64,000 nt of DNA from Candidatus Woesearchaeota archaeon (lineage in GTDB: Archaea > Nanobdellota > Nanobdellia > Woesearchaeales > GCA-2687795): contig NZBG01000034.1 of NCBI GenBank assembly GCA_002687795.1, forward strand, positions 10,362 through 74,361, given 5' to 3'. Shown here piece after piece: positions 3,501-61,214 of the stretch. Numbering within the stretch: the stretch's first letter is position 1; each line of letters starts with the position of its first letter. The position numbers and the translations under genes are program-made. The notes beneath the pieces were generated by a model that worked only from the letters and a program-made list of their open reading frames with translations, ran no database searches and was not told the DNA's origin.

Positions 3501-3968
3501 AAGAGGTTCTATAATAATACTCTTGGGTTTAGCATGGCTCTGATACCTGATAAGAACGGAAACTATCAGAATGTTGTATCAAGCCAAGAGATAGCATCAA
3601 GCATGTTTAATATATTGTTTTATATGGAAGGCCATGGCTTAAGGTATTTCAAGAAGTTCTCTGACCAAAGCAGCGTATTTGGAAACAGGATTATTGTATG
3701 GAAGGTTGACTGGGAGGGCTCTGAGATGAACAAATTAGATTATTTTAAGGCAAAGGAGGCTGTTAACCAGACAACCGATCAAACAGATATAAATATAACA
3801 GAAGAAGATACAGATTTCTTAATAAAGAATATTTCTGGAAATGATTCAGAAGCTGCAGAAACAATAAATGAAACTGATGTAACCTCAAACGCCTCTGAAC
3901 AAGCCGAGGATAATCAGACAACAGCTGAAACGGAAAAGCTATCTCCTCCCAGAGTATCAATAGAATAA
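507..3968 (+). CDS. aglB: Archaeal oligosaccharyltransferase AglB (STT3 family) with a long K/E-rich N-terminal extension
   Basis: Polytopic N-terminal half and a periplasmic C-terminal domain. The hallmark WWDFGHW (WWDYG-type) motif lies at about nt 2738-2758. The first ~150 aa are charged KE repeats. Confidence 0.88.
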   Translation: MAEEDKETEEDENIDIDFSKIKKFFKNLFKEDKEEEKKELKKEIKEVDKEIKEDIKEKKGDIKELKEEENEIKEIKEDIKKEPSEKELEKAKEDIKEIKEEVEKEEEDEINIDFSKIKNWFKKAFSEDKDKKDIKEEKKTDEEEEVSFDIKRAKSFYAQYKHYIIPILFILIAGIFSVYLRMMPDSLPITDDWARNSVYSGVKSQIKGQIDQQYPNLPDANKNGLVEVEFNKLLKAERSAIEQQVKGTSQFFKSNLKNEKGTTYLLAIDPYYWYRYSRNVIEKGTTADTTKDGIPWDDHMLAPLGRPADSNFHIYFEVFLYKVFSAFNKDLDLMKVAFFIPVIISTLSVIPAFFIARRIGGNLGGLIAAIMVAIHPALLGRTAGGFADTDAYNVFFPLVITWLALEAFESKNLRSKIILASLSGFFVGLFSFSWMGWWYIFDFILIALLFYITYFIIVHREHLKKGISYFIFNTPVKNTLILLVTFLSVSCVSVTLFTDFWTFRTAPTQPFNFAQIKVVGVTKIWPNVITTVAEQNEASLNNVINQIGIGKRLFFLISLIGIILLLVRKQSKRPSDLWFISLASLWHFIILAFKPQDLHTFIVLISLPIIAKILIALKEKDTKADIKLAIILIIWFIATIYASTKGIRFLLLFVPAFSLAFGIALGIIYEYCSSLISKSLNIHQTITKAALLLLIFFLFLLSPINAAKSTARSEIPSMNDAWYSSLDKIRLESEPDAIVNSWWDFGHWFKAITDRAVTFDGTTQDMPQAHWIGNTLLTSSEETSVGILRMLDCGATNAFDELDKVINDGAKSVDILYEIIVEKETKAKDTLTNNYSLTEEQAAKVLENTHCDPPENYYITSEDMVGKSGVWAHFGSWDFDRATIYNTLIKKDYKKDKEKSVQFLIERFNYTREKAENIYYDVNSLSSNRAVNDWIAPWPSYMSGSSSCPRLNNETLSCSFGQGNVIINLTNYDAFIPTPTGTKYPNSIVYPSEDGIHEKRFYNNTLGFSMALIPDKNGNYQNVVSSQEIASSMFNILFYMEGHGLRYFKKFSDQSSVFGNRIIVWKVDWEGSEMNKLDYFKAKEAVNQTTDQTDINITEEDTDFLIKNISGNDSEAAETINETDVTSNASEQAEDNQTTAETEKLSPPRVSIE

Positions 3969-5131: not shown

Positions 5132-6289
5132 TTACTTCCTCTCTTTCTTCTTCGTGTAAGCAAAGTAACCAACTAATCCAATAAGAACGATCGCTGCTGC
5201 AACCAGCCAGCCATACTTTGGTTTTGGTGGAGGAACTATATCTTCTTTATCCTCTTCTTCTTCTGGTGGCTTAGCCTCTTCTGGTGGAGCTGCTACTACT
5301 TCTTCACCGCCAGCAATAGTATAAGACTTTATAGAACTCAGTTTTTTCTTGACTGTATAACTTAAATCAAGGGATTTGCCTTTCTTTAAAGAATCAATAG
5401 TCCATTGGACAACAGGATCTTTCTGCAATACCTCAGGGGTTTCTCCTGTAAATGCCAAATCATCAGTTGATTTTGCAACAGTTTTTGGTATTATCTCAAC
5501 AACCTTTATCTTTTTCATATCTTTAGGAGCTGTAACAACCAATGTAATCTGTGTCCTGTATACATAATCACCTGTATCCAGATTTTCTATATTATAAACA
5601 GTTAAGGTTCTTGTAACCCCTGCCTTAGCCTTTTCTCCGGATTCAAACCCTGCCTTTAATTCCTGTAAAACTGATATTGCTTTTGTGCTAGTAACATGCT
5701 CTATTGCCTCTTCTATTCCTGCTGGGGTGTTCTTCCCAAAGGTTTCAGTTGAAGCATCCCCTACCCGAGAATATTTAAGATTATCATCTTCCCAGCCCTC
5801 TGGCAGTGATTTTTCTAATCTGTTAATAATATAGGAATCCGATGCAATCTCTGTTAAGGTTTCTGTTGTAGCAGCTGAGCCACCGCCAGCACCTCCTGTT
5901 GAGCCTGCTGCTGCAGCTGCTGCAGCTGAATAGCTTAGATTGAGTTGTGTGATACCTCCTGGCGTAAAAGCAGAGCTTCCTGAATCAGTTCCGCTAGCTA
6001 TAAATGTAATAGTTGCACCTGAAGTACAGACACTTTCGCCAGCAGCGCATACAAACAACTTTTCATCACTCGCGCCTGCACCTCCATAAACTCCATCATG
6101 CGTAGTTGTTATACTGCCAACAGTAGTACCGCCTATGTTAGCTGTTATCGTTAACCCAGCAGATGCGCCTGTTATTGTGCCAAAATATGCCTCTGGGAAA
6201 GCTGGAAGACTTTCTCCATAAGCAATTCCTATTAAAGAAAAAAAAACCATTATTAAAATTATTGCTTTATTCATCTTTGTGTTGCCCAT
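5132..6289 (-). CDS. Secreted cell-surface protein with an N-terminal signal peptide, a G/A/T/S-rich region, a P/E-rich stalk and a C-terminal TM anchor
   Basis: N-terminus MNKAIILIMVFFSLIGIAYG, a poly-Ala/Gly stretch, a PPEEAKPPEEEEDKEDIVPPPKP linker, and a C-terminus WLVAAAIVLIGLVGYFAYTKKKERK. Confidence 0.5.
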   Translation of the reverse strand: MGNTKMNKAIILIMVFFSLIGIAYGESLPAFPEAYFGTITGASAGLTITANIGGTTVGSITTTHDGVYGGAGASDEKLFVCAAGESVCTSGATITFIASGTDSGSSAFTPGGITQLNLSYSAAAAAAAGSTGGAGGGSAATTETLTEIASDSYIINRLEKSLPEGWEDDNLKYSRVGDASTETFGKNTPAGIEEAIEHVTSTKAISVLQELKAGFESGEKAKAGVTRTLTVYNIENLDTGDYVYRTQITLVVTAPKDMKKIKVVEIIPKTVAKSTDDLAFTGETPEVLQKDPVVQWTIDSLKKGKSLDLSYTVKKKLSSIKSYTIAGGEEVVAAPPEEAKPPEEEEDKEDIVPPPKPKYGWLVAAAIVLIGLVGYFAYTKKKERK

Positions 6290-56315: not shown

Positions 56316-56543
56316 TTAGTCCAGATAACCCAGGCTTCTTAGCCTTTCTTTAACCTTGATTTCATCCTCTTTGCTGAAAGGGTTTTCCTTCTTCTCAGAA
56401 TCCTCTGATTCAGAGATTATCTGCCTTAGGATATAGGTTATATAGCTTGATATAGAATTAAATCCTGTGCCTTCTATCCTCTTTTTAACCTTCTCAGCCA
56501 GTATTTTAGGTATAGATACTGTTGTGATATTATGTTCTTCCAT
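56316..56543 (-). CDS. Small ribbon-helix-helix (CopG/Arc-like) DNA-binding protein
   Basis: 75 aa. TVSIPKILAEKVKKRIEGTGFNSISSYITYILRQ fits a beta-strand plus two-helix RHH fold. Confidence 0.4.
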   Translation of the reverse strand: MEEHNITTVSIPKILAEKVKKRIEGTGFNSISSYITYILRQIISESEDSEKKENPFSKEDEIKVKERLRSLGYLD

Positions 56544-56706
56544 TTTAGAGCCCTCCTTCGGTTATATATATGTTTAATAGTATTTAATTGGCATTTATAT
56601 GATATTTATTCGACATTTATATAGTTTTTGGTTTAATCAATAGAAAAAGGCTTCTTCCAGTAGCTCAGAACTTATATCCTTTGAGTTTAAAGGACTTTAT
56701 TTAATC

Positions 56707-56752
56707 AGGTATTTGTTGTGTTGATTAGGGTTCTTACACTGTCATTTATCGC
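56707..56752. repeat. Left copy of a ~46-bp direct repeat that brackets the HEPN/MNT islet
   Basis: aggtaTTTGTTGTGTTgATTAGGGTTCTTACaCTGTCATTTATcGC. A second copy lies at 58178-58224 with about 4 mismatches. Confidence 0.55.
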
Positions 56753-56827
56753 TTGGAAGGTCATTAACTGGTATTCTGCTGCATAGAACGCTGGGGTTAA
56801 GTTAAATAAGCCGCTTATTAAGAAATA

Positions 56828-56899
56828 TGTCAGTATAACCTAATATTTAGGGGTAAAATGTGTCAGTATAACGATATATTTGTATAACCTGTATTTAGG
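56828..56899. repeat. Short intergenic direct repeats (TGTCAGTATAAC x2; TATAACCT(A/G)TATTTAGG x2)
   Basis: The copies are visible at 56828-56839 and 56861-56872, and at 56834-56851 and 56883-56899. Confidence 0.4.
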
Positions 56900-57171
56900 T
56901 GAAGAAAAGATAAAAGGAAAAAGGATTTGAAAAGGTTATGAGAAAATTACAAAGAAAAGAAGAAAAAGACCATAAAGAGTTGCTTAAACTTAAGAAGAAA
57001 AGATAACTCCTGAAAAGCCAAAGAAAGTATATGGCTGGCTGATTGTTTTGATAATTCTGTTATTATGTATATTGGAATACTTTGTTTACCTAAGACTAAT
57101 AGAAAGGTTTAATAAATTAAACAGAAATATTTAAATATCTTTTCTGTTTAACTTGTTAATTAGATGATAAA

Positions 57172-57546
57172 ATGATTGGTGAAATCCATAAAGAAGCTGC
57201 AAAATCTCATTTAAAAGTGGGTGAAGAGTTTTACAAAAAAATGCAGGAAGAATCAGATACAAACAAGAAGACAGCTAATATGATTGTAAGCGCTCAGAAC
57301 TATTTTTATTGCTCAGTTAATGTAATAGAATATATTTTATTCAAAGAGAAAAAAGAACATTCCTTTAACCATGAAAACAGATTTAGAAAGGTGAAAGAAT
57401 ACTTCAATATATTTCCTTCTGAGTTCGCAGAACTATATGACAAAGTAGATAGGGATCTTAGGAATAAAGTAGCTTATAGAGGAGAGAATTCTGAGAAATT
57501 TGAATCGTTAAAGAAATTAGCAGAATCAGCAATTAAGTTACTATGA
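57172..57546 (+). CDS. HEPN-like small alpha-helical protein (partner of the minimal nucleotidyltransferase)
   Basis: 124 aa, all-helical, with a C-terminal RDLRNKVAYRGE Rx4-6[H/Y]-like motif. Its stop overlaps the downstream ATG (ATGA). Confidence 0.4.
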   Translation: MIGEIHKEAAKSHLKVGEEFYKKMQEESDTNKKTANMIVSAQNYFYCSVNVIEYILFKEKKEHSFNHENRFRKVKEYFNIFPSEFAELYDKVDRDLRNKVAYRGENSEKFESLKKLAESAIKLL

Positions 57547-58160
57547 ATAAATTTGAAAAAACACTTGAGGAACTGAAAAAGAAATTCTTCAAAATAAAAG
57601 ATATATCAATCGTTATATTATATGGCTCTGTTGCAAGAGGCAATTATTCTCTAAGACATTCAGATTTGGATTTATTTATAATTTTGAATAGGAGAGAGTC
57701 TAATGAAAAAATCGTGGGAAAAATTAATGATCAATTATTACCCCTTGGTTCTAGAAACGGAGTCAAGGTACATATTGAATACCAAGGAAGTAAAATAAAT
57801 GATGAGGACAAAACTTTGATTGAAAAAATGATTGAAGAAGGTAAAGTAATCTACTCAAATGCTTTTATGATTTTTCCAATAGATAAAATTGGTTTAGAAC
57901 AATATATTATCTATGAGTTTTCCTCAAAAGAACCTAAAATTAAAACCAGGATTTCACAGATATTCCATGGAAGAAAATCATGGTATCGCAAGGGTAAGAA
58001 GAAGATTATAAAAGAATATGAAGGCATTGCTGATGACAAGGATATAATTTTATTAGGCAAAGGGGCGGTCATGGTGGCTAAAAGTGAGCAGGAGGAGATA
58101 GTAAATATGTTTGAAAGGTTAGGAGTTGATTATAAAATAAAAAAGATTGTTTATGGTTAA
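57543..58160 (+). CDS. Minimal nucleotidyltransferase (MNT, Pol-beta superfamily)
   Basis: ILYGSVARGNYSLRHSDLDLFIIL, a GSxxRGx(n)SDxDL motif. Confidence 0.7.
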   Translation: MNKFEKTLEELKKKFFKIKDISIVILYGSVARGNYSLRHSDLDLFIILNRRESNEKIVGKINDQLLPLGSRNGVKVHIEYQGSKINDEDKTLIEKMIEEGKVIYSNAFMIFPIDKIGLEQYIIYEFSSKEPKIKTRISQIFHGRKSWYRKGKKKIIKEYEGIADDKDIILLGKGAVMVAKSEQEEIVNMFERLGVDYKIKKIVYG

Positions 58161-58177
58161 GAGTGCAAAAGGTTTGT

Positions 58178-58224
58178 TTAGGTCTTTGTTGTGTTTATTA
58201 GGGTTCTTACGCTGTCATTTATTG
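58178..58224. repeat. Right copy of the ~46-bp direct repeat that brackets the HEPN/MNT islet
   Basis: aggtcTTTGTTGTGTTtATTAGGGTTCTTACgCTGTCATTTATtGC. Confidence 0.55.
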
Positions 58225-58288
58225 CATAGAAAGTCTTAAGATTATTAAAACAATCCCAACGTTTATTATTTTTTCATTAAACCCCATT

Positions 58289-58819
58289 TTATATTATCCT
58301 GAACTCATTCGATTCGACTCTAACAAGAGCAGGGTTACCTTTATAATTCATATAAATATAGTCCACCTTGATTTTGTATATTCCTTTACCAGCAATTGTT
58401 TTTTTACGCGTATACATATTAGGATATATTTTTTGATCCCATATTGAAAGTAATTTTTCCTTAGATTTAATATTCTTTATAATCTCCATCTCACAATTTC
58501 CGTAAGAGAGAAAAAAATCATCCCATTCTACACCATTAAACTGAGATATAATATATACATCTCCTCCACATCCAGTTACCCCACCAAGTACCAAATCCTT
58601 GTTAAATCCATTATAAATCACAAAATAAACATATTCATTTTGACTATAAACAGTTTTATCTGTCTTTATAATCAGGTCTTTCATAGAATGATTTATTTGA
58701 AAATCCTCTACAGAGATATTATTTTCTTGTAATTCTTCACACCCACTTATAACAAAGAACAAACTAACTAATCCTATAATCAGAAACATTTTCCTCTTTT
58801 TCTCAATCATTTTCCCCAA
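58289..58819 (-). CDS. Small secreted/lipoprotein-like protein
   Basis: Signal peptide with a lipobox-like LVSLFFVISGCEE; 176 aa. Confidence 0.35.
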   Translation of the reverse strand: MGKMIEKKRKMFLIIGLVSLFFVISGCEELQENNISVEDFQINHSMKDLIIKTDKTVYSQNEYVYFVIYNGFNKDLVLGGVTGCGGDVYIISQFNGVEWDDFFLSYGNCEMEIIKNIKSKEKLLSIWDQKIYPNMYTRKKTIAGKGIYKIKVDYIYMNYKGNPALVRVESNEFRII

Positions 58820-58895: not shown

Positions 58896-60470
58896 CTAAT
58901 CAACCCTATAAACCTCAGTAGAAGTCTTATTATTACTGTAAACAAGGCTGTAGCCCCTGATTATGTCCATGAAGTCATCAGGGTAGGCTGCTGAGAAGCC
59001 CTTTTCATCAGGCCCATAGAAGTCAATCTTCTGGTTTACCCAGATATAAGAGATATTATACTCCTTAATCTTGTCTACAGAGTCAATATAGGGCCTTCCA
59101 TAGAAGCTGTATGTATACCTGTTGAAATTATATGCATAACAATCACCCCTTGGAACCAATATAACAGCATCTTTAGCTGTATTATTCTCCAGCCAGTTAA
59201 AATCCTCTTCATAAGAGCCCCATGTCCTACTTACCACAACAGCTTTAACAAGCTCAACAGCTGAGAACCCTATAATACATAACCCAATGAGCATGAACAC
59301 AGCCAGCCTGAATAAACCTTTTTTATTAGAGACAAGTTTGTTTAATCCTATTGCCCACATTATACCAAGGGGTATGAACAAAGGCATTGAATGCCTGATA
59401 TAGACAAGATCGTTCATAACCTTGTTAAAGATTGCAAAGCTGAAAAAGGAAAGGAACCAGACAATCAGCATCCAGTTTCTTTTATCCTTTAGCTTTATGC
59501 CTATCAGATAGAAAATAAAAGGAACTGTGAAGATAAAAGTGCCTAAAAACCATAGGCCAAGCAAAACATTAAGGAAAGGCAGCTTAAGGAAGGTAAGGTT
59601 CTGGGCATTGCCCGCTCCCGGAACACCATACATTGAAAGATATATCCTCCAGAGAAAGTCAGGCTTAAGAAGATTCTTTAGCTCAACATTAGCCTCTGTA
59701 AAATGGAAAAAGTTAGGGTCTATCCCCTTGTCCTGGCCTATAACCGAGTCAAGGAAAGGCCAGACAGGATTGCCTAGAACAACATAGTTCCTTGCATACC
59801 ACCATAATCCAAATATTGAAGTGGCTATAAGAAGCAATAACAGGATTCTCACAAGCTCCTTTTTATTCTTCCCAAACCTTAAAAATGCCAGGAAGAGCAG
59901 CAACGGAACAACAAACACTGCAGTATATTTTGTTGATAGAGATAAGCCGGCAAAGATCCCTGAAACAAAGGCTTTCTTTTCAAACAGATAATAAACAGAT
60001 GCAAGCACGAAAAAGCATACTGCTGCATCCTGGTAAGGTATTGCGCTCATGTAGATATGCAAAGGGATGAAAGCAACAAAGATTGTGGCAAAGAATGCAA
60101 TTCTGGAATTATACAGCTTCCTTGTAAACAGGAAAGCATATATCAATGTTAAGCTTCCGAATAGAGGGGAGACAAGGTTAACTGAAAACTCTGCTATATT
60201 TCTTCCAAAGATGCCTGAAACCTTATAGAAGAAGGCTGCAATAAGATGAAACATGGGCGGTGCCCAGAACACCGGCCTGCCTAAGGGCTCAAGTAAGGGA
60301 ACCCTGAGGTTATCGGCAATAAACCTTGACACTGAGATAACCCAGCAGGGGTCGCCTGTAACATGCACAAAAAAGGATATGGTAAACCTCAGCAGTGTGC
60401 CTATTATAATAACCAGGAAAGCCAGCCTGGTATACTTATCTAATTTCTTCCAGAAAGATTCTAGAAACAT
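58896..60470 (-). CDS. GT-C glycosyltransferase of the ArnT/PMT (GT39/GT83-like) type
   Basis: 524 aa with about 12 TM helices; the N-terminal loop has RFTISFFVHVTGDPCW and an acidic patch. Confidence 0.5.
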   Translation of the reverse strand: MFLESFWKKLDKYTRLAFLVIIIGTLLRFTISFFVHVTGDPCWVISVSRFIADNLRVPLLEPLGRPVFWAPPMFHLIAAFFYKVSGIFGRNIAEFSVNLVSPLFGSLTLIYAFLFTRKLYNSRIAFFATIFVAFIPLHIYMSAIPYQDAAVCFFVLASVYYLFEKKAFVSGIFAGLSLSTKYTAVFVVPLLLFLAFLRFGKNKKELVRILLLLLIATSIFGLWWYARNYVVLGNPVWPFLDSVIGQDKGIDPNFFHFTEANVELKNLLKPDFLWRIYLSMYGVPGAGNAQNLTFLKLPFLNVLLGLWFLGTFIFTVPFIFYLIGIKLKDKRNWMLIVWFLSFFSFAIFNKVMNDLVYIRHSMPLFIPLGIMWAIGLNKLVSNKKGLFRLAVFMLIGLCIIGFSAVELVKAVVVSRTWGSYEEDFNWLENNTAKDAVILVPRGDCYAYNFNRYTYSFYGRPYIDSVDKIKEYNISYIWVNQKIDFYGPDEKGFSAAYPDDFMDIIRGYSLVYSNNKTSTEVYRVD

Positions 60471-60776
60471 AGAGAGGGAAAATGCTGTTTTCTTTAAATA
60501 TTTATTCTTATTTTGTTGTGGTGCGATAGCGTTTGATATGCTCTGATTTCTCTTAAATGGTGCGTTTTGTTTGATTTATAGATAGATTTAATAATTTTCA
60601 TTAACTTTGCGGTTTTGCACAAAAAAGATTTTCCCCTAAGAATAAGTTTATATATTACATTTCTTATATAATATAATTATGAGAAGACTATTGATTTTGT
60701 TGATATTGATTACGGTTTTTATATTACAAAAGAAAAGTATAATGAAACTAATGATTATATACTTAATGGAACATCG

Positions 60777-61214
60777 TTGAAGCTAAAAGATTTGGAGCAT
60801 AAGGGCGGTGGTGCTTTTCGTGCTAACTTAATATATAGAAACACATCAAAGAAAGTTAGGTTTAGATTATATGATGGGGCGAGTTTTTTGGCTTTAGAAT
60901 TGAAAAGATGGAACGAAGATTATACAACATATATTGATTATGCTTTCATTGAAGAAGTAGATATAAATACAAGTTCTTCAGATTGGAATTTTATTAAAGT
61001 GTCTTATGGAAGATATAAGGAAGGTGGTTTATCATTTGATGCAGACCAGTATCAAGAATACATAGATAATCAAGAATTCTGTAAAAATGATAATGAATGT
61101 GTCGCTACTTGTGGATATGGTTGTGTAAATAAGTATTGGTTTCAAACAATTGGTATAGATTGTGAAGCTGTAGTTACCTTTTCCTGTAAGTGTGTTAATA
61201 ATACTTGCCGTTGA
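60777..61214 (+). CDS. Small Cys-rich protein (8 Cys in the last 45 aa); the start would be a non-ATG codon (TTG)
   Basis: C-terminus CKNDNECVATCGYGCVNKYWFQTIGIDCEAVVTFSCKCVNNTCR. An out-of-frame upstream ORF (from about 60669) encodes a signal-peptide-like MRRLLILLILITVFILQKK. Confidence 0.25.
   Translation: MKLKDLEHKGGGAFRANLIYRNTSKKVRFRLYDGASFLALELKRWNEDYTTYIDYAFIEEVDINTSSSDWNFIKVSYGRYKEGGLSFDADQYQEYIDNQEFCKNDNECVATCGYGCVNKYWFQTIGIDCEAVVTFSCKCVNNTCR

Follow-up and report, generated by a model that had tools for sequence, protein, structure and literature searches.

A 64-kb stretch of contig NZBG01000034.1 from a marine woesearchaeon (Candidatus Woesearchaeota archaeon), referred to here as the window, carries two overlapping genes for a HEPN-fold protein and an MntA-like nucleotidyltransferase that lie, together with their promoter, between two imperfect direct repeats. 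The Pfam families of the surrounding genes (sulfatase, phosphodiesterase, PMT_2, methyltransferase, deacetylase, aminotransferase and similar) mark a glycosylation and cell-surface locus, which is the setting given in a preliminary description of this DNA. The same description grouped the gene pair with a nearby gene for a putative ribbon-helix-helix (RHH) regulator into an accessory islet, and read the repeats as traces either of a mobile cassette inserted or excised site-specifically or of recombination between duplicated regulatory regions. The features on which the present analysis turns are listed below, with protein lengths in amino acids (aa) and positions counted within the window.

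Positions 56700-56762 (56689-56768 when gapped), minus strand: left repeat copy, from a repeat search and gapped alignment.
Positions 56708-56839, minus strand: left gene stub, a 44-codon open frame without a usable start, VILTYFLISGLFNLTPAFYAAEYQLMTFQAINDSVRTLINTTNT, from phmmer and tblastn, with homology at 56708-56821.
Positions 57106-57163, plus strand: promoter and operator region of the cassette, a pattern that lies upstream of the HEPN-like gene in most related loci.
Positions 57106-57124, plus strand: palindromic operator O1, GGTTTAATAAATTAAACAG.
Positions 57130-57137, plus strand: TATA box, TTTAAATA, between operators O1 and O2.
Positions 57144-57163, plus strand: palindromic operator O2, CTGTTTAACTTGTTAATTAG.
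Positions 57172-57546, plus strand: gene for a divergent HEPN-fold protein of 124 aa, from AlphaFold, Foldseek and a family alignment.
Positions 57543-58160, plus strand: gene for an MntA-like nucleotidyltransferase of 205 aa, from Pfam and Foldseek, whose start overlaps the stop of the HEPN gene as ATGA.
Positions 58173-58235 (58168-58240 when gapped), minus strand: right repeat copy, from a repeat search and gapped alignment.

The two repeat copies are direct and 84% identical over 63 nt, and contain a 46-nt core with 4 mismatches. A repeat search bore out the positions that had been reported for imperfect repeats of ca. 46 bp with about 4 mismatches (56707-56752 and 58178-58224). A degenerate version of a 38-nt core matched exactly twice in the 64-kb window and 0 times in 100 shuffles, and alignment of the sequence upstream of the cassette with that downstream of it scored 81 versus a shuffle maximum of 33. 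The right copy starts 7-12 nt past the stop codon of the transferase gene, and the left copy sits ca. 340 nt from operator O1. As an exact pattern, the core had 0 matches in metagenome and viral contig collections, and the repeat matched neither tRNAs nor Rfam families. Folded as RNA, both strands were no better than shuffles (z-scores -1.1 to +1.3), and this fold test gave no hairpin or attC-like symmetry of significance.

Read on the minus strand, both copies encode nearly the same peptide tail, ...TF(Q/Y)AINDSVRTLINTT(N/K)T, and their stop codons coincide in the alignment. The left copy comprises the final 18 codons and the TGA stop (56705-56707) of a surface-protein gene, its peptide ending in ...MTFQAINDSVRTLINTTNT, whereas the right copy belongs to a 31-codon open frame (58181-58273, minus strand) that has no start codon and ends in ...KTFYAINDSVRTLINTTKT before a TAA stop at 58178-58180. 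Of the ten nucleotides at which the copies differ, six are at third codon positions, and the likeness of the copies fades just beyond the stop. When the 44-aa frame was compared with 1.84 billion representative proteins by phmmer, 12 matched. The best match (E 9.3e-9) corresponds to an internal repeat within a protein of 950 aa, and the other 11 all lie at the extreme C-terminus of their proteins (E 4.5e-8 to 4e-4). Eight of these 11 are proteins of 302-480 aa, seven of the eight having a hydrophobic N-terminal leader and many NxS/T sequons, and the remaining three are short open reading frames (ORFs) of 41-109 aa with the same tail from other metagenomes (P0205-P0207). Members of the family end in ...LFNLTPSFYAAEYQDMSFQEINNSVRTLIDNTKI or similar, and one bears a Laminin_G_3 domain; the secreted, sequon-rich woesearchaeal proteins among the matches have 418-480 aa. 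At the very C-terminal end of this woesearchaeal secreted family (P0197-P0204) stands a conserved block, LFN.TP.FYA.EYQ..T.Q..N.SVR.LI.NT. The left copy aligns with it over 34-38 residues (62-76% identical), the right one over 15-21; tblastn placed the homology at 56708-56821 for the left copy (E about 1e-11) and at 58181-58243 for the right one. No further trace of the family was detected in the window by tblastn. As both copies come without the rest of the gene, they are fragments and not family members, and since the window holds no intact member, they are best read as pseudogene stubs. Judged by protein homology, each repeat copy is thus a pseudogene stub left from the 3' end of a gene for a secreted, sequon-rich surface protein, amounting to about the last 20 codons plus stop, or to 38-44 codons in the left copy. 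This identity displaces the earlier suggestion of duplicated regulatory regions and likewise speaks against a common intergenic motif, because what is duplicated is the coding end of an opposite-strand gene.

Between the stubs, the ATGA overlap noted in the preliminary description follows from the coordinates of the two genes (57172-57546 and 57543-58160), which are probably translationally coupled. AlphaFold predicts a helical bundle of five helices for the 124-aa protein (pLDDT 93.3), and the top Foldseek matches of this model in the PDB are HEPN proteins, namely 2hsb (AF0298), 1o3u (TM0613) and HepT (7bxo_F/5yep), at TM values of 0.55-0.65; their probability is 1.0 but their E-values are weak (0.04-0.2), and 1wwp appears at rank 33. 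No HEPN family was matched in Pfam (E up to 0.1, including PF05168 and PF01934), NCBIfam or PADLOC, and a profile search against PDB sequences gave no HEPN entry. By its modeled structure, the label "HEPN-like" is therefore right at the level of the fold. At the position of the catalytic Rx4-6H motif, the protein reads R97-N-K-V-A-Y102-R-G, with R97 and Y102 invariant in 46 aligned members and no His there; in terms of the RX4HXY motif of HepT, Tyr replaces His and Gly104 takes the position of the acceptor Tyr. Elsewhere in the family, H6 and H63 are invariant, H67 is conserved in at least 90% of members, and the motifs QNYFY and HSFNHENR are invariant.

The partner of this protein had been called a minimal nucleotidyltransferase (MNT). 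Its transferase domain is confirmed by Pfam (Polbeta, 1.3e-10; NTP_transf_2, 6.2e-07), over residues 9-106 only, but the protein is not minimal, being 205 aa long where minimal nucleotidyltransferases are "typically less than 150" aa (PMC2701414). The motif G28-S29-x11-D41-x-D43 is invariant and one residue longer than the textbook GSx10DxD spacing. The predicted structure (pLDDT 91) found its best Foldseek matches in the MntA/MNT antitoxins 7bxo_E, 8xeh_E and 7ae9 (E 1e-4, probability 1.0), and the NCBIfam model for MntA scored 23.5 bits, below its cutoff of 60. Residues 1-110 form the MntA-like part, and residues from about 118 to 205 a conserved beta-alpha-beta4-alpha-beta domain for which neither a Pfam match in seven family members nor a PDB sequence match was obtained; Foldseek with the whole protein matched the N-terminal domain only. 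Conservation in the two protein families amounts to 16-18 invariant residues, 55-64% mean column identity and fixed lengths.

Upstream of the pair, the two operators have the form CTGTTYAA-N4-TTRAACAG and enclose the TATA box, an architecture that recurs 5' of the HEPN-like gene in most related loci. The half-sites co-vary from locus to locus (TTAAACAG/CTGTTTAA, TTGAACAG/CTGTTCAA, TTAAGCAG/CTGCTTAA), and the pattern occurs once in the window versus 0 expected and once in each matching related locus. Co-variation and single occurrence argue for a repressor in the form of a dimeric DNA-binding protein evolving along with the cassette; a protein encoded by the cassette may repress its own promoter through these operators.

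Homologues of the transferase (110 sequences of ca. 205 aa, 42-77% identity) and of the HEPN-like protein (83 sequences of ca. 124 aa) were found, and wherever their source names give a taxon it is, without exception, Woesearchaeota, Nanoarchaeota or simply "archaeon". Proteins identical to those of the window are listed under marine Candidatus Woesearchaeota. From the contexts of three close relatives and from scans of GTDB genomes and JGI metagenomes, we assembled 36 distinct cassettes with both flanks. In 24 of the 25 loci with sequence 5' of the transferase gene, the HEPN-like gene is its immediate neighbor there, mostly with an ATGA overlap, and the HEPN-first order holds in the window and in every related locus in which a HEPN-like gene was found. 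Operator, HEPN-like gene and transferase gene together span ca. 1.05 kb, and this cassette has unrelated neighbors elsewhere, among them genes for HisRS, a GT9 glycosyltransferase and a Cas4-like nuclease as well as argC/argG and alaS. The closest relatives share 77-85% identity with the window in the pair itself, while the flanking genes are not orthologous (<32% identity). No relatives of the cassette turned up in IMG/VR or PLSDB. In Woesearchaeota and Nanoarchaeota, the cassette forms a discrete conserved unit that occurs in varied neighborhoods. None of the top literature results linked Woesearchaeota with HEPN or toxin-antitoxin modules, and the pair appears to represent a distinct, well-conserved HEPN/MNT lineage that has not been described before.

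Genomes contain one or two copies of the cassette as far as seen, and two genomes have two: JAGVYH01 (L033, L049) and CAYVNO01 (L035, L045) each encode two divergent transferases that are 43-56% identical to the query, and at L049 no HEPN-like partner was detectable by tblastn. In one lineage represented by three assemblies (L037, L059 and L062), the HEPN-like gene is frameshifted near codons 88-99 beside an intact transferase gene, which would look like the pattern expected of toxin decay. A small conserved domain accompanies the cassette in the closest relatives (NWIEDEI..HLHLG.FEH...Y..L...Y....DKDK.KHY.K.K.LH.RISK; L009 6611-6811, L011 16-699, L012 20-208), in L009 as a 66-aa ORF that overlaps the transferase stop, in L011 as the C-terminal part of a 227-aa membrane protein encoded just upstream; the window has no clear counterpart of it. 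The entries for L035-L037, L040, L042, L043, L045 and L053 are titled "uncultured Methanosarcinales archaeon", probably a taxonomic mislabel of these TPA assemblies.

Flanking duplications are not confined to the window. In each locus, 1.2 kb upstream of the cassette were compared with 0.8 kb downstream against shuffled controls, followed by a tighter test near the cassette ends, which gave the following cases.

L046 (= L083): 48 nt, score 69 versus 28, 3' end of a convergent PD-(D/E)XK (Cas4-like) gene.
L085: 33 nt, score 51 versus 32, last codons of alaS.
L043 (= L073): 29 nt, p<0.005, both copies reading VKNGD...I and then a stop.
L013: 18 nt, p=0.05 (borderline), end of argC and ribosome-binding site of argG.

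At L046, the intact Cas4-like gene now ends in ...ECNYCRW-VDSNHKLS, read from the cassette end, and the orphan copy keeps ...ECNYCRW-VKDCKLY, each followed by a stop. At L085, alaS now ends in ...GVRRIKAILE and the displaced copy reads ...GVRRIKTILTAS, again each up to a stop. In all four loci, the downstream copy lies 0-21 nt past the transferase stop, as it does in the window (7-12 nt), and the upstream copy ends 2-14 nt from operator O1, to which the window with its ca. 340 nt is the exception. The repeat sequences are unrelated between loci and always derive from the local neighbor gene, with lengths from 18 to >63 nt, which excludes a conserved att site. One further candidate, at L068, was rejected as a flanking duplication and proved to be a recurring terminator-like hairpin motif (CCGAAATTCGG).

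The remaining features around the repeats concern the base composition of the locus, the spacer between the left stub and the cassette, and the adjoining genes.

Positions 56316-56543, minus strand: 75-aa ORF, possible RHH regulator, from the ORF list and sub-threshold NikR/CdrS matches.
Positions 56823-56900, plus strand: imperfect tandem repeats of 33-nt period, TGTCAGTATAAC, two exact copies and a partial third unit.
Positions 57009-57134, plus strand: stub of a membrane-anchor gene, PEKPKKVYGWLIVLIILLLCILEYFVYLRLIER... up to a stop, from blastx against ORFs of the window, ending inside the left operator O1.
Positions 58289-58819, minus strand: lipoprotein-like orphan gene of 176 aa (called as 173 aa), outside the repeats and as low in GC as the inserted block.

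The GC content, 0.389 over the whole window and 0.40-0.43 in the flanking glycosylation genes, drops to 0.28-0.30 from 56544 to 58819; cassettes at other loci are on average only 0.03 below their host. The spacer (56763-57171, about 410 bp) has 16-30% GC and internal repeats, so that the AT-rich spacer of ca. 420 bp with short internal repeats in the preliminary description was recovered by GC and repeat analysis. Its tandem repeats (TGTCAGTATAAC, 0.25 expected by chance at one mismatch) directly adjoin the left gene stub. The anchor stub resembles the C-terminus of a 385-aa secreted protein encoded at 5132-6289 on the minus strand (45% over 33 aa, E 5e-5), which suggests that a P-x-KPK-YGWL anchor motif is common to surface proteins of this organism. 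The 385-aa protein is rich in Ala, Gly and Thr, and the anchor stub in the spacer reads PEKPKKVYGWLIV... A similarity search for the spacer as a decayed paralogue of the 176-aa gene or as the body of a surface-protein gene came back empty. The region is a small graveyard of gene ends within a surface and glycosylation island.

The 75-aa ORF adjoins the sulfatase gene and heads the minus-strand sulfatase operon. NCBIfam aligned it to the N-terminal parts of NikR, and to CdrS, at E 0.02-0.11, far below cutoffs, and Pfam and PDB searches were without match. Its position outside the left repeat agrees with the preliminary description, but its inclusion in the islet does not hold: the gene stands outside the repeats, heads another operon and has no homologue near the cassette in any of 60 related loci. 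Some 38-81 nt upstream of it, at 56581-56624, two 22-nt units follow each other in perfect register (TATTTAATTGGCATTTATATGA / TATTTATTCGACATTTATATAG), each including a TATA-like TTTATAT, and this pair could be a candidate promoter or operator of the putative RHH/sulfatase operon. The 176-aa orphan gene has a GC content of 0.288, as poor as that of the cassette. Apart from a fragment of itself, its product has a single distant homologue among 5.8 billion proteins, and the scan of genome contigs gave no relatives. The right repeat copy was considered as the old C-terminus of this in-frame gene and rejected, since three stop codons lie between and since its homologue P0195 (49% identity) likewise terminates in ...NEFKII and stop. 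A second low-GC patch (0.27-0.32) at 60400-61200 lies over a 145-aa plus-strand ORF (60777-61214), and the locus looks like a mosaic of several acquisitions. Scans for tRNAs and Rfam families across the window returned nothing.

We consider it slightly better than an even bet, at a probability of roughly 0.55, that a low-GC fragment with the cassette integrated into a surface-protein gene at its 3' end, that this end was duplicated in the process, and that the gene body was later deleted. A horizontally acquired low-GC block, comprising the tandem repeats, the anchor stub and the two-gene cassette, would have entered the 3' end of the gene and left a copy of its tail on each side, after which the gene body beside the right copy would have been lost. 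The duplication might have arisen by fill-in of a long staggered break or by single-crossover integration of a circular fragment that carried a related gene tail; of the two routes, the second is mildly favored by the excess of synonymous differences between the copies. As to function, we infer by likeness to type VII (HepT/MntA) systems a toxin-antitoxin or defense pair in which the transferase would nucleotidylate and thereby silence the HEPN protein. Of the mobile cassette proposed earlier, much persists in this reading, namely genuine repeats, foreign-looking GC, varied neighborhoods and comparable repeats elsewhere, but a site-specific process does not, as the repeat is not a conserved attachment site.

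Several observations weigh against this account. No copy of the locus without the insert was found: the 20 contigs retrieved as exact matches of the transferase, of the 173-aa protein and of the putative RHH protein, all with the exact flanking proteins, are collinear with the window at 99.99-100% identity, so that the insertion is deduced and not seen. Both copies in the window are orphans, which calls for at least one extra deletion, and the distance of ca. 340 nt between the left copy and the operator means that the repeats enclose more than the cassette. The low-GC block passes the right repeat into the 176-aa gene, and the repeats thus do not delimit the atypical GC. Repeats were found at only 4-5 of the 36 distinct loci (three others, one borderline case and the window), and the codon-position bias of 6/10 is by itself not significant. 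No recombinase was on record among the Pfam families near the cassette, nor did IMG/VR and PLSDB provide a link to viruses or plasmids. The toxin-antitoxin function, too, is rendered doubtful by the reversed gene order, by the Tyr in place of the catalytic His and by an unusually strong conservation with 1-2 copies.

Some of these points fit a different history, in which pieces of a strain-variable glycosylation island were replaced repeatedly at a habitual junction, the conserved 3' end of the surface-protein gene. Each illegitimate or homologous exchange there would have left a copy of the tail as a scar, and the cassette would have come in as a passenger on one of the new pieces. In aquatic prokaryotes, surface-glycosylation islands are replaced through recombination in flanking conserved genes (PMC4033161, PMC4535781), and a junction of this kind is visible in the surface-protein family itself: L095 and L096, which share an identical 475-aa P0197, are 99.97-100% identical over 3.8 kb (one gap), diverge ca. 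10 nt past the P0197 stop (stop at 3788-3790, junction at ca. 3800) and go on into different glycosylation genes, and L097 ends exactly there. The short orphan ORFs P0205-P0207 with the same C-terminus in other metagenomes are also in line with such scars, as are a low-GC block that exceeds the interval between the repeats and the second gene stub inside this block. Island replacement leaves unexplained, however, why the right stub begins 7-12 nt past the transferase stop, as the copies of quite different genes do in L013, L043, L046 and L085, and a clean double crossover would leave no duplicate at all; we regard this history as the main rival, though an unlikely one. A site-specific recombinase or integron-like system, for which the repeats would be attL/attR cores, could account for direct repeats of ca. 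50-60 nt at gene 3' ends, as is typical of integrase-mediated integration, and for their presence around the cassette in several genomes. Such cores should not change with the local gene from locus to locus or vary in length from 18 to >63 nt; the repeat, moreover, has no hairpin and no further copy of its core in the window or in viral or metagenome collections, its two copies are truncated stubs of 84% identity, and the Pfam families recorded for its neighboring genes include neither an integrase nor a transposase. We therefore hold an att-type system to be very improbable. Hardly any weight attaches to the idea that the repeat functions as a non-coding element, for example as a terminator, a small RNA or a promoter module: the right copy does lie in a convergent intergenic gap just 3' of the transferase gene, where a terminator would be expected, yet the repeat has no Rfam match, no significant structure on either strand and two copies only, protein homology explains its sequence, and in relatives the transferase gene is followed after 14-17 nt or with overlap by the next gene, with no such element.

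A tentative alternative, which we judge possible if rather less than probable, concerns the pair and not the repeats: it may be a domesticated, lineage-wide two-subunit enzyme or regulator, the HEPN protein acting as a substrate-binding or regulatory partner and the neighborhoods varying through poor synteny. Domestication of MNT-HEPN pairs into regulatory enzymes has been described by Anantharaman et al. (PMC3710099), and it would suit the strong conservation with fixed lengths and 16-18 invariant residues, the 1-2 copies per genome, the GC of most cassettes near that of their host, the missing His of Rx4-6H, the HEPN-first order and the lack of plasmid or viral copies in PLSDB and IMG/VR. 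It sits poorly with the flanking target duplications, with the strongly deviant GC in the window, with 77-85% identity between genomes in which the neighbors are not orthologous and with the frameshifted HEPN-like gene beside an intact transferase gene in the L037/L059/L062 lineage, all of which have the look of a mobile addiction or defense module.

Insertion of a cassette with duplication of its target, the reading we prefer, can be set beside several known systems. In known pairs, the MNT gene almost always precedes the HEPN gene, and members of the HEPN-T group (1wwp, 2hsb, 1o3u) often have another residue for the His (PMC3710099); RX4HXY is absent from class II HEPN-MNT modules (PMC11586414). 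The HEPN-T-type fold matches and the missing RX4HXY make the pair resemble these class II modules (HEPN-T / PF05168 / COG2250 with a COG1708-type partner), with which it shares the operon of a helical HEPN protein and a Pol-beta-type transferase. It differs from them in having no PF05168 sequence match, a reversed gene order, a transferase with an additional domain of ca. 90 aa (205 aa in total), Tyr for His, the invariant HSFNHENR and a double operator around the TATA box. With HepT/MntA, the cassette has in common a transferase that is predicted to fold as MntA, the GS...DxD motif, overlapping genes and a mobile, patchy placement; unlike HepT/MntA, it lacks RX4HXY, has the reversed order and scores below the MntA cutoff, and neutralization of a toxic HEPN protein by oligo-AMPylation would be carried over by analogy. 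Like integrative elements that target gene 3' ends, it is associated with a duplicated gene tail, one copy remaining on the gene and an orphan copy standing opposite (L046, L085), but it has no integrase, a repeat that differs at each locus and an inserted unit of only two genes. The location in a glycosylation cluster, with strain-specific content that starts after the 3' end of a conserved gene, recalls replacement flexible genomic islands (PMC4033161, PMC4535781), which are swapped cleanly by recombination in flanking core genes, whereas the junction in the window carries a toxin-antitoxin-like cassette and duplicated stubs.

It is an improbable but attractive extension that the cassette of ca. 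1.05 kb represents a novel type of small mobile element in DPANN archaea, inserting at gene 3' ends with duplications of 18 to >63 nt and no recognizable transposase or integrase. Such an element may be moved by a host pathway or by its own proteins, the Pol-beta-type transferase with its C-terminal domain and the HEPN-fold partner. With its reversed order, Tyr for His, additional transferase domain and co-evolving operator, the HEPN/MNT lineage is well suited to testing the workings of class II HEPN-MNT modules, and the surface-protein gene tail is a marker for the turnover of surface islands in uncultured DPANN archaea. The recurrent duplication of neighbor tails hints at an insertion route for small cassettes without a dedicated recombinase, which, if confirmed, would be of wider interest for compact archaeal genomes.

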